Assembly: GCA_045635585.1 (NCBI GenBank)
Contig: JAZTWA010000001.1
Span: 28 to 64,027 of the forward strand
DNA: 64,000 nucleotides
Origin: Candidatus Enterousia sp.
GTDB taxonomy: Bacteria > Pseudomonadota > Alphaproteobacteria > Rs-D84
Direction: 5' to 3'
Part shown: positions 14,375 to 16,435 of the stretch, one piece after another
How the letters are laid out: every line of letters begins with the position of its first letter
Position numbering within the stretch: position 1 is the first letter of the stretch
The notes under the pieces: model-generated
Told to the model about the DNA's origin: nothing
The model's input: the letters and a program-made list of their open reading frames with translations, nothing else
The model's database searches: none
Program-made: the position numbers and the translations under genes

Positions 14375-15382
14375 ATGAAAATCGGTTTTTTTGGTACGGT
14401 TTCATCTCTTTTTGTGTTGATGTTTGCAAATTCGCATGCTGCGGAAATTTTGCCCTTGTCAACGGCTATGGAAAACGCGCGCAAGACATGTTATGTCTTG
14501 TTTGACAACGTTGTAGGTTATGAAAGGTCAAGTAAAGCCGCGGTGGTGTCAGGTGGTGTTGGTACTGCGTTGCAAACGGGGGCAACTGTTGTGGGCGCTG
14601 TTGGTGTGGCCCAGGAAAATAGATACGATGCAGTTGCGAAACAGCGTAACCAGTTGACAAAAGAAATAAGAAACTTAAAGAAAACTGATGGCGAAATGAT
14701 TGGCGAAGCAACCACGCTTGGTTATGAAACTGTTGATAATTCCGATGAGATTGCAGAAAAAGAAACAGAGAAAAAAGCGCTTCAGCAAAAGTTGCGTAAA
14801 ATGAATAATGGTCCAACGAATGGTGCCACTATAACAAAGGTTGCGATGGATCTGACTGGTGCTTTTGTTAACTTTTTATCTCTTTTGGCGACCGGTACGG
14901 GCCCTGGGTTCAGTGACTTTGTGGATTCTGTTCAAGCGTGTTCAAATACCATAAACGAAATTCCTGCGGCTGTGATGCAGTATAAATTAGACACTGGCGT
15001 TGATGATCAGAGTGAAACGGTTTCTCAGGCTTTGCGCGTTGTTGAAACGTGTGGTCAATATGATTTGGCCAAAGTGCAAAAATTACGTGGTTATACAGAG
15101 GCATCTATGATTGTTGGCGCGGTTGGTGTTGTGGGCGGTATTGTTGGTGGTGCTTTATCTGCTTCATCAATATCTGATGGGCCAAACAATTCAAAATCAG
15201 ATGCTGACAAAGATAAGCGTTTGGCGACGGCTGGTACGGCGGTTTCTGGTGTTGCAACGGCGGCATCTGCGACGGGGCTTGCGCTTAATGCGGTGCAATT
15301 AAAGGCGGTCCAAGAGTTGACCGAAATTTCTGTCCAGTGCGCAGAAGCCTTGGGGTATGATTGGAATGCAGACGTTGATTAA
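14375..15382 (+). CDS. Secreted Gly/Ala-rich four-Cys protein, tandem paralog 1 (335 aa)
   Basis: Signal peptide ending ANSHAA. Conserved blocks ARKTCYVLFD, VDSVQACSN..IPAAVMQYKLDTG, ETCGQYDLAKVQKLRGY, TAGTAVSGVATAASATGLALNAVQLKAVQEL and QCAEAL are shared with the next two ORFs. Confidence 0.8.
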   Translation: MKIGFFGTVSSLFVLMFANSHAAEILPLSTAMENARKTCYVLFDNVVGYERSSKAAVVSGGVGTALQTGATVVGAVGVAQENRYDAVAKQRNQLTKEIRNLKKTDGEMIGEATTLGYETVDNSDEIAEKETEKKALQQKLRKMNNGPTNGATITKVAMDLTGAFVNFLSLLATGTGPGFSDFVDSVQACSNTINEIPAAVMQYKLDTGVDDQSETVSQALRVVETCGQYDLAKVQKLRGYTEASMIVGAVGVVGGIVGGALSASSISDGPNNSKSDADKDKRLATAGTAVSGVATAASATGLALNAVQLKAVQELTEISVQCAEALGYDWNADVD

Positions 15383-15387
15383 AAAAA

Positions 15388-15409
15388 GTCGCCAAATGGC
15401 GGCTTTTTT
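15388..15409 (+). terminator. Rho-independent terminator of paralog 1
   Basis: GTCGCC-AAAT-GGCGGC followed by a T-run. Identical to the terminator of paralog 2. Confidence 0.8.
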
Positions 15410-15423
15410 ATTTGGGATGTATA

Positions 15424-15432
15424 TGATATAAT
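15424..15432 (+). promoter_or_regulatory. Extended -10 element TGaTATAAT upstream of paralog 2
   Basis: TATGATATAAT lies about 21 nt upstream of the ATG. Confidence 0.45.
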
Positions 15433-15452
15433 GCACAAAAAAGAGGGGTTGT

Positions 15453-16385
15453 ATGAAATTTATTGTGTGTATGATTGTATCATTGTTTGCGATATTGTCG
15501 TCTGCAAATTCACATGCGGCGGGTAATTTAGATTTGATATCTGCGGCGGCAAACGCACGTAAAGAATGTCATGTGTTGTTTGATAGGCTTGTGGGACGCA
15601 AAGGTGCTGCGGGTTGGGCAGTTGGATTAAGTGCACTTGGTACAGGTTTAGAGGCGGGGGCAACTGTGGCTGGTGCTGTTGGGGCGCATAATGGGCGCCA
15701 GTATGAAGAAACAGCGGAAGAAATACGTCAAAATAAAGCAGAGATTAATAGATTAAGGGCCGCAAATGTTGAAGGTATTGATGCGTTATATGATGATAAA
15801 AGTGATGGTCAAACACAGAAAAATTTAGCTGTTGAAAATTCGACGACCCAGACAAAAATTACACTGGATACGGTTGCAATATTTGCAAATGCTTTGTCTG
15901 TATTGGCGTCTGCTATAGTTGGAAATGCTTTTAGTGAATTGGTAGATTCTGTTCAGGCGTGTTCAAATGCGGTAAACGAAATTCCTGCGGCTGTGATGCA
16001 GTACAAATTGGATACAGGTGTCAATGATCAAAATGCAACGGTTGCCCATGCGTTACGCATTGTTGAAACGTGTGGTCAATATGATTTGGCCAAGGTACAA
16101 AAATTACGTGGTTATACAACTGCGTCTATGATTGTTGGGGCGGTTGGTGCAACAAGCGGTATCGCCAGTGGTATCGTGACATCCAAGGCGGCGGGCGAAG
16201 ATCGTCATTATGTTGAAACAAAATTATTGACTGCTGGTACGGCGGTTTCTGGTGCTGCAACGGCAGCATCTGCGACGGGGCTTGCACTTAATGCGGTGCA
16301 ATTAAAGGCGGTCCAAGAGTTGTCCGAAATTTCCGCCCAGTGTGCAGAGGCTTTGGAATATGATTTGAATGCAGGCATTGATTAA
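15453..16385 (+). CDS. Secreted Gly/Ala-rich four-Cys protein, tandem paralog 2 (310 aa)
   Basis: Signal peptide ending ANSHAA. The C-terminal half is near-identical to paralog 1; the central region is divergent. Confidence 0.8.
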   Translation: MKFIVCMIVSLFAILSSANSHAAGNLDLISAAANARKECHVLFDRLVGRKGAAGWAVGLSALGTGLEAGATVAGAVGAHNGRQYEETAEEIRQNKAEINRLRAANVEGIDALYDDKSDGQTQKNLAVENSTTQTKITLDTVAIFANALSVLASAIVGNAFSELVDSVQACSNAVNEIPAAVMQYKLDTGVNDQNATVAHALRIVETCGQYDLAKVQKLRGYTTASMIVGAVGATSGIASGIVTSKAAGEDRHYVETKLLTAGTAVSGAATAASATGLALNAVQLKAVQELSEISAQCAEALEYDLNAGID

Positions 16386-16390
16386 AAAAA

Positions 16391-16412
16391 GTCGCCAAAT
16401 GGCGGCTTTTTT
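16391..16412 (+). terminator. Rho-independent terminator of paralog 2
   Basis: GTCGCC-AAAT-GGCGGC followed by a T-run. Confidence 0.8.
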
Positions 16413-16426
16413 ATTTGCGAAACGTA

Positions 16427-16435
16427 TGATATAAT
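16427..16435 (+). promoter_or_regulatory. Extended -10 element TGaTATAAT upstream of paralog 3
   Basis: TATGATATAAT lies about 26 nt upstream of the ATG at 16461. Confidence 0.45.

Follow-up and report, generated by a model that had tools for sequence, protein, structure and literature searches.

The window analysed here is a 64-kb stretch of contig JAZTWA010000001.1 from a Candidatus Enterousia sp. (Alphaproteobacteria, order Rs-D84), and the subject is an array of three tandem paralogous genes on its plus strand. According to the list of open reading frames (ORFs), these genes are placed between an acyl-ACP (acyl carrier protein) thioesterase gene (13560-14288; Pfam PF01643/PF20791) and the convergent rpmH, beyond which gyrA is found (18238-20970). 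The strain of the window is designated W and its copies 1 to 3 are referred to as W1, W2 and c3, while S and T stand for a sister strain and a third strain, respectively. Copy 1 (14375-15382), recognized from its ORF, the family alignments and an AlphaFold2 (AF2) model, encodes a protein of 335 amino acids (aa) with a signal peptide ending in ANSHA, followed by A, and with invariant cysteines at positions 39, 189, 226 and 322. The ORF of copy 2 (15453-16385) encodes 310 aa and presents 96% identity to its sister-strain counterpart. Copy 3 (16461-17531) is the most divergent; its ORF encodes 356 aa, or 361 aa if translation began at 16446, and the ATG at 16461 is most likely the start codon, since AAGGTG lies 7 nucleotides (nt) upstream of it and the 356-aa form was called in two other assemblies. 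On the left, the array is bounded by the plus-strand terminator hairpin of the thioesterase gene (14287-14320; –13.6 kcal/mol, z –4.6), which was also recovered by the terminator scan, and on the right by a bidirectional hairpin terminator (17532-17560; terminator scan and folding) common to copy 3 and rpmH. A foreign origin of the array was considered and dropped, because its composition shows no anomaly (G+C fraction of 0.43-0.45 against 0.40-0.46 in the flanks).

Each copy is equipped with its own predicted transcription signals. The extended –10 box TGATATAAT is present on the plus strand at 14340-14348, 15424-15432 and 16427-16435, in each case 20-26 nt upstream of a start codon provided with a Shine-Dalgarno sequence. 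The promoter scan paired the first of these boxes with TGGAGA at a 16-nt spacing, and all three were located by sequence search; together they make up three of the nine TGNTATAAT sites in the window. Downstream, a G+C-rich hairpin with a T-run was found 3′ of each copy, with folding energies of –16.1, –16.1 and –16.3 kcal/mol and z-scores from –4.4 to –5.6. The plus-strand terminators of copy 1 (15382-15414), which is of the copy-2 type in W, and copy 2 (16385-16417) are identical: the 33-nt string AAAAAAGTCGCCAAATGGCGGCTTTTTTATTTG occurs exactly twice, at these two places, with 0 occurrences expected by chance. All of this agrees with the sequence-only reading of the window, in which a box had been reported before each ATG (at 14340, 15424 and 16427) and a hairpin after each stop, with the same terminator behind copies 1 and 2, and in which each paralog had been taken as its own transcription unit. 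On the predicted promoters and terminators, whose function is presumed from their sequences, that last proposal is well founded.

Along their length, copies 1 and 2 are related in a very uneven way. The codon-aligned sliding-window comparison gave 42-67% identity over the first ~200 alignment columns, with indels, and 72-92% and 81-97% in two 3′ blocks, hereafter C1 and C2, which are separated by a loop of 33-55% identity. The repeat finder retrieved both blocks on the plus strand: C1 of copy 1 (14909-15151) is 83% identical in nucleotide sequence to 15930-16172, and C2 together with the terminator and the next promoter (15226-15432) is 90% identical to 16229-16435. The copy-3 equivalent of the second block (17372-17578) is 65% identical. 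The almost identical 3′ tracts noticed at the outset in copies 1 and 2 were recovered in this manner, and high identity is confined to the two 3′ blocks, against 40-60% elsewhere; divergence along the genes is far from uniform. The idea that both ends had been homogenized held for the 3′ half and for the terminator/promoter junctions and failed for the 5′ ends of copies 1 and 2, which are ~62% identical.

It could be argued that such a mosaic requires no gene conversion at all, and that it stems from a triplication long ago, after which the 3′ half was held by strong purifying selection while the rest drifted freely. The 3′ blocks do encode the most conserved parts of the family, namely the cysteine core and the last helix, and the similarity of C1 is equal in both strains (86-88%) and thus old. 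However, synonymous sites tell a different story: by the Nei-Gojobori method, the synonymous divergence (dS) between copies 1 and 2 is saturated in codons 24-200 (1.5-2.0) and falls to 0.48 in C1 and 0.24 in C2 (p=4e-4 and p=5e-7, respectively, in Fisher tests with the upstream region as reference). Likewise, where the two proteins have the same residue, the share of identical codons rises from 47% upstream to 75% in C1 and 84% in C2, and because codon identity at identical residues is higher in the blocks, constraint at the protein level alone does not explain them. Moreover, the non-coding terminators of copies 1 and 2 are identical, and chimeras with sharp breakpoints, described below, differ between strains. 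The pairwise homoplasy index (PHI) test, performed with seven genes from strains W and S (484 informative sites), gave an observed value of 0.026 against 0.0445 +/- 0.0024 under permutation, and none of the 2000 permutations reached a value as low (p<0.0005). An account free of conversion is consequently held to be highly improbable, and copies 1 and 2 do form a genuine mosaic. Comparisons with copy 3 showed a trend in block C2 only (dS of 0.55; codon identity of 75-79% against 56-59%), which was not significant.

The comparison of strains revealed both chimeric genes and a difference in copy number. Cluster look-ups retrieved three strains in total (W, S and T), all from metagenome assemblies. 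Strain S, represented by an ENA gut metagenome scaffold whose flanking DNA is ~96% identical to the window, carries four genes of 335, 310, 334 and 361 aa (S1 to S4) between the same flanking genes. Since window positions 16229-16495 align to both the S2-S3 and the S3-S4 junctions, the difference between three and four copies corresponds to exactly one repeat unit. The four-copy arrangement was 100% identical in three samples (S and two further ones), and strain T, 97.9% identical to the window, shares with it the direct junction from copy 2 to copy 3, so that both arrangements have been seen in at least two independent assemblies. Two scans of JGI (Joint Genome Institute) metagenome contigs, with copies 1 and 3 as queries, yielded no relatives. 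Recombination among the copies, as had been proposed from the window, was borne out by the low regional dS, the PHI test, the strain chimeras and the change in copy number, and the strain comparison that had been suggested uncovered the expected variation in gene number (three in W, four in S).

The extra gene of S, S3, is a chimera composed of a copy-2-type 5′ end and a copy-1-type body. In its promoter and signal peptide, identity is 92-96% to the copy-2 genes (the 5′ end 92% to S2 and 96% to W2) and 66-68% to the copy-1 genes; beyond the breakpoint, which coincides with the signal-peptide cleavage site, the body shares 92-94% identity with the copy-1 genes and 57% with the copy-2 genes. In W, the last codons and terminator of copy 1 are of the copy-2 type: they present 88-91% identity to the copy-2 genes against 71% to the ortholog S1, and S1 and S3 have in common the tail EDTK* and a different terminator with compensatory changes in the stem. 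It is in this tail and terminator segment, and not in C1 or C2, that similarity between paralogs of one strain exceeds that between orthologs. In addition, a plus-strand patch in copy 2 (16239-16323) is a candidate short or patchy conversion tract, where W2 has the W1 base at 7/7 sites and differs from S2 and T2 at all seven, S2 and T2 being alike at six of them.

In these segments, events of several ages can be distinguished. The similarity of C1 is old and that of C2 is intermediate in age, and the recent events comprise the change in copy number as well as those seen in the W1 tail, in the W2 patch and at the 5′ end of S3. Most of the homogenization predates the split of W and S, since in C1 and C2 the gene W2 is closer to S2 than to W1. 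Any direction and order given to the events is putative: whether three copies gave rise to four or four to three, at least two steps would be needed, for which the candidates are a crossover in a 10-14-nt stretch that the terminators share, or a duplication and a later conversion of ~950 nt.

The proteins of the array evolve much faster than those of the neighbouring genes. When W is compared with S, the ratio of non-synonymous to synonymous divergence (dN/dS) is 0.02 in the flanking genes valS, thioesterase and gyrA, with dS of 0.11-0.20, and the corresponding ratios in the array are 1.45 for copy 1 (42 non-synonymous to 9 synonymous changes), 0.33 for copy 2 and 0.34 for copy 3. Non-synonymous divergence in the array is 10-25 times that of the flanking genes, and Fisher tests on non-synonymous and synonymous counts of array against flank gave p values from 1e-8 to 3e-27. 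For copy 1 as a whole, the excess of dN/dS over 1 has p=0.21; in its N-terminal, middle and loop regions, 30 non-synonymous and 2 synonymous changes were counted, with an uncorrected p=0.011 for a region chosen after inspection. The three types of middle region are kept between the strains at 92-99% nucleotide identity, with flanking DNA that differs by 4%. The diversifying selection proposed earlier finds marginal backing in copy 1, where dN/dS exceeds 1, and none in copies 2 and 3, with ratios of 0.33-0.34; the three types of middle are almost unchanged from strain to strain. These data show strongly relaxed or partly positive selection and not hypervariability.

A search was also made for the parts of a switching apparatus. 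The genome comprises 928 kb in 28 contigs and is 92% complete, and no further nucleotide-level copies, fragments or silent cassettes of the array genes were present in it. In the array region, neither an invertible promoter nor repeat tracts with a unit of at least 4 bases were found, and the longest homopolymers read in the array were T7 and A7, which differ between strains without a frameshift. All copies are complete, each with promoter, ribosome-binding site, signal peptide and terminator, and there is no division into an expression site and silent cassettes. The only inverted repeat resembles two similar promoters: its 23-nt arms (16414-16436 / 17819-17841), 83% complementary, bracket copy 3 and rpmH, the first arm being the copy-3 promoter region TTTGCGAAACGTATGATATAATA and the second, on the minus strand ~100 nt upstream of rpmH, reading TTTGTAAAACGTATGATTAAATA. 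It could reflect either two promoters that merely look alike or an array promoter derived from that of rpmH.

These observations bear on the possibility that the array is a system of programmed antigenic or phase variation of an exposed surface antigen, comparable to vlsE, pilE/pilS, msp2 or the Mycoplasma vlp/vsa genes. Several features would suit it, such as a conserved 3′ framework with variable segments, recombination within the array, fast protein evolution that reaches a dN/dS of 1.45 in copy 1, and an organism thought to depend on a partner or host. Nevertheless, every copy is complete and there is no single expression site, partial or promoterless copies are absent from the rest of the 928-kb genome, no switch element of the kinds just listed was found, and the middle types remain 92-99% identical between strains whose flanking DNA differs by 4%. 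The analogy with antigenically variable surface proteins drawn in the sequence-only reading is deprived of its defining parts, a programmed variation system is not supported, and such an explanation is regarded as very unlikely.

With respect to its origin, the array belongs to an undescribed family. Pfam and NCBIfam searches with the three copies gave no match above the cut-off, and a PDB profile search returned only coiled-coil noise, with no relevant sequence match. Among 69 family members, no recurring Pfam family was found, the best being DUF6944 in 5/69 with an E value of 8.5e-4 or worse. Out of 1.84 billion representatives, the family profile retrieved 487 clusters at 50% identity, and the genomic matches are metagenome-assembled genomes (MAGs) labelled as Alphaproteobacteria or Candidatus Enterousia, from animal and human guts. 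Members are present in 20/24 congeners searched, with up to 15 copies in a sister family. Judged by these sequence searches, the family is restricted to the order Rs-D84. A 2.3-kb contig, CAZJGX010000105.1, which lies in a Muribaculaceae MAG bin and carries a typical Enterousia-type member, is probably a binning error. Three further, typical paralogs, with 25-29% identity, are found in the same genome as the array. A second copy was present within 6 kb at 2/80 loci, so that tandem arrays are unusual in this family.

In the family tree, copies 1 to 3 cluster with S3 in a single clade, whose stem is very long, and the three dispersed paralogs sit among their own orthologs. In a collection of 5.8 billion proteins, more than 30% identity to copy 1 was found in this species only. 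The site itself is variable across the genus: the thioesterase gene is followed directly by rpmH in 5/29 congeners, and then by gyrA in the four loci long enough to include it; one of the 29 has a lone typical member of the family downstream of the thioesterase gene, and the others have different genes. No such array was found within 1.5 kb downstream of the thioesterase gene in any of the 29. Given the long-stem clade, the lack of close relatives beyond the species and the varied site in congeners, the array is best described, on these comparisons, as a species-specific expansion of a fast-diverging offshoot of the family at a genus-variable site. In other species of the genus (loci L070:1021-8800, L075 and L114 bear on this variation), the position behind the thioesterase gene is in some cases taken by genes for unrelated secreted proteins, Cys-rich or Ala/Ser-rich, and several species have one or two family members downstream of gyrA-merR instead.

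Family-wide, the proteins present a signal peptide of the signal peptidase I type, four invariant cysteines (C39, C189, C226 and C322 of copy 1) and four uncharged runs rich in Gly, Ala and Thr, of 21-35 residues (median 25) and with Kyte-Doolittle peaks of 1.1-2.0, besides a short K-rich loop and a middle of 45-89 residues that is charged and variable. AF2 was run on copy 1 with 42 sequences (mean predicted local distance difference test score, pLDDT, of 57.5) and on a typical member with 69 sequences (mean pLDDT of 68.5). Both models are all-helical, with a confident Cys-bearing core made up of an N-terminal helix, a central part and a C-terminal helix, and with two long helical hairpins, modelled with low confidence, that carry the variable tips (around residues 110 and 275 of copy 1). 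Foldseek comparison of both models with the PDB returned nothing significant (best E values of 0.58 and 0.15). The cysteines are probably engaged in disulfide bonds, for which C39-C322 and C189-C226 would be a conjectural pairing. The genome has genes for DsbA, BamA and a secretin, and VirB4 and DsbB were not found in it at 92% completeness.

Taken together, the preferred explanation, to which a probability of about 0.8 is assigned, is that ordinary homologous recombination among the array's repeat units of ~1.0-1.1 kb accounts for its changes, with no programmed switch. Whole copies would be gained or lost by unequal crossover, or by deletion at the conserved junction of 3′ end, terminator and promoter, and gene conversion of varied ages and lengths would move segments between copies. 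Conversion would thereby keep the 3′ half similar, that is, the cysteine-bearing core and the last uncharged helix, as well as the regulatory junctions, and the N-terminal third and the tips of both helical hairpins would diverge fast, either because constraint is relaxed or because positive selection acts weakly. The discrete strain chimeras and the copy-number difference of one unit support both gene conversion and unequal crossover. The exchange and the change in number of the copies are ordinary gene-copy evolution and not demonstrated antigen switching.

Some observations weigh against this explanation or limit it. In the array, dS between W and S is 0.04-0.06, below the 0.11-0.20 of the flanks (window 11152-20970), which might reflect either a locus exchanged recently from strain to strain or, if the genes are highly expressed, constraint on their codons. 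The tract at 16239-16323 is patchy, with copy-2-specific sites interleaved, so that its direction is uncertain or its donor unsampled. In C1 and C2, orthologs are closer than paralogs (95-100% for W2-S2 against 86-91% for W1-W2). Only three strains are available, all from metagenome assemblies, and in any single contig a collapse or expansion of the repeats is conceivable. Furthermore, the AF2 hairpins have pLDDT values of 30-65, and the separate transcription units are predicted ones.

As regards function, the proteins may act in the envelope or in a membrane, at the interface with a partner or host cell, a proposal that is given roughly an even chance. Within it, the disulfide-stapled head might face the periplasm or the outside, and the two uncharged Gly/Ala-rich hairpins might span a membrane or pack as a small-residue zipper. 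Two topologies fit the data. In one, the protein would be polytopic in the inner membrane, its disulfide core in the periplasm and its tips in the cytoplasm; in the other, it would be an exported elongated bundle, whose uncharged arms would insert into another membrane or form a small-residue zipper. Neither the positive-inside rule nor a crude Hessa-scale sum discriminated between them. In the inner-membrane version, a cleaved signal peptide would be followed by four transmembrane helices, and the variability of the tips would be unrelated to any interaction outside the cell; this alternative concerns function and topology only and is compatible with the evolutionary explanation preferred here. 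The four uncharged runs lie in register between the Cys-bearing acidic core and K/R-rich tips, all four cysteines would be on the same, periplasmic, side, and the Kyte-Doolittle peaks of 1.1-2.0 point in the same direction. Yet the hydrophobicity is marginal, with the best 19-mer giving a crude Hessa sum of +2 to +6 kcal/mol (a sum that is positive for signal peptides too), Thr, Ser, Asn and Gly abound in the segments, and there would be no evident reason for cytoplasmic loops to evolve fastest or for a reduced genome to keep 3-4 extra copies. The inner-membrane topology is thus seen as a tentative option on the unlikely side.

A multi-component α-helical pore-forming toxin of the ClyA family (Hbl/Nhe/Ahl/Smh), with the paralogs as its subunits, was also contemplated. 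The proteins are Sec-exported, of ~300-360 aa, all-helical and elongated, with uncharged Gly/Ala-rich hairpins, and are encoded by three tandem paralogs; ClyA, AhlB, AhlC and MakA were among the listed Foldseek matches, ClyA being the first in one list. However, those matches are not significant (E values of 0.55-3.8, probability of at most 0.38, TM-score of 0.10-0.26, from low-confidence models), no sequence similarity emerged in the PDB profile search, each gene is a separate predicted transcription unit, and the copy number is three or four, with dispersed single copies in most species. Four invariant cysteines are not known as a feature of ClyA-type or tripartite toxins, and this assignment is regarded as quite unlikely. 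Finally, the proteins might represent a new class of membrane-inserting helical hairpins, with a disulfide-stapled head and two uncharged Gly/Ala-rich hairpins ending in charged, variable tips. An obligately partner-dependent bacterium of reduced genome might employ them for contact with its partner or host, for example as a channel or in attachment, and the array might be a locus of arms race or host adaptation. This idea is speculative and rather unlikely; if it were true, recombination between copies would create new combinations of tips.

Regarding the dispersed members of the family, two typical paralogs of the same genome (311 and 308 aa; contig C11, L005:1492-3863 and L006:242-3455) lie downstream of genes for proteins of ~175-180 aa that begin with M..VPKILYHGS or M..VKTLYHGS, and a gene for a Cys-rich secreted protein of 234 aa is placed between the two modules. 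The neighbours of the dispersed paralogs had no Pfam match. In three genomes of a sister family in the same order (G026, G031 and G035), 13-15 family matches were counted, some of them inside open frames of 450-700 aa with two matched stretches, which may be duplicated or fused versions of the domain.

The organisms concerned give the locus its context. Members of the Rs-D84 lineage (Enterousia) are common in animal and human guts, have genomes below 1 Mb and are inferred to depend on partner cells, and the mode of contact with those partners is obscure (PMC12306168). The locus points to a lineage-restricted exported family of ~490 clusters at 50% identity without known relatives, of which one species possesses an array that evolves >10 times faster in protein than the neighbouring genes and recombines internally. 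The array genes are reasonable candidates for the interface between cells or with the host, and could be useful as strain markers. Gene conversion and unequal crossover in tandem paralogs are already well known, so that the value of the array lies in a documented case and an uncharacterized family, and not in the mechanism.

Several known systems share part of these properties. ClyA, AhlABC, Hbl, Nhe and MakA resemble the array proteins in size, in the elongated helical bundle, in the uncharged hairpin segments and in the occurrence of tandem paralogs, and differ from them in that there is no significant similarity of sequence or fold and that the genes described here are monocistronic and, in the family, mostly dispersed single copies. 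In Borrelia vlsE, Neisseria pilE/pilS and Anaplasma msp2/p44, a conserved framework surrounds variable segments and the mechanism is gene conversion. The array has in common with these silent-cassette systems both the flanking framework and the conversion, although in its case every copy is a complete gene and the genome has no additional partial ones.

The mrp-emm-enn region of Streptococcus pyogenes likewise carries one to three tandem paralogs for helical proteins. Proteins of the emm family have conserved leader and C-terminal parts and variable N-terminal parts. Recombination between adjacent copies is reported to give rise to chimeric or fused genes and to changes in copy number (PMC6952200, PMC6321872, PMC9993116). 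Unlike the array proteins, which have no anchor motif and belong to a diderm organism, M proteins come from a Gram-positive pathogen and are coiled-coil dimers with an LPXTG anchor, with proven surface exposure and immune selection; in the array, moreover, conservation between copies lies in the 3′ half, and the signal peptides of copies 1 and 2 differ.

The closest pattern is that of babA/babB and homA/homB of Helicobacter pylori, in which the 3′ segment undergoes concerted evolution by intragenomic conversion and is kept alike next to a variable, allelic middle (PMC2795765, PMC3444412). The H. pylori genes are dispersed loci for β-barrel adhesins of known function, whereas the genes described here are in tandem and belong to a helical family; and the 3′ parts of H. 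pylori paralogs cluster within a strain, which here is the case of the tail and terminator only (W1 with the copy-2 genes), with the 5′ end of S3 grouping with the copy-2 genes of both strains. Both systems nonetheless display chimeric genes together with differences between strains in copy number or locus.

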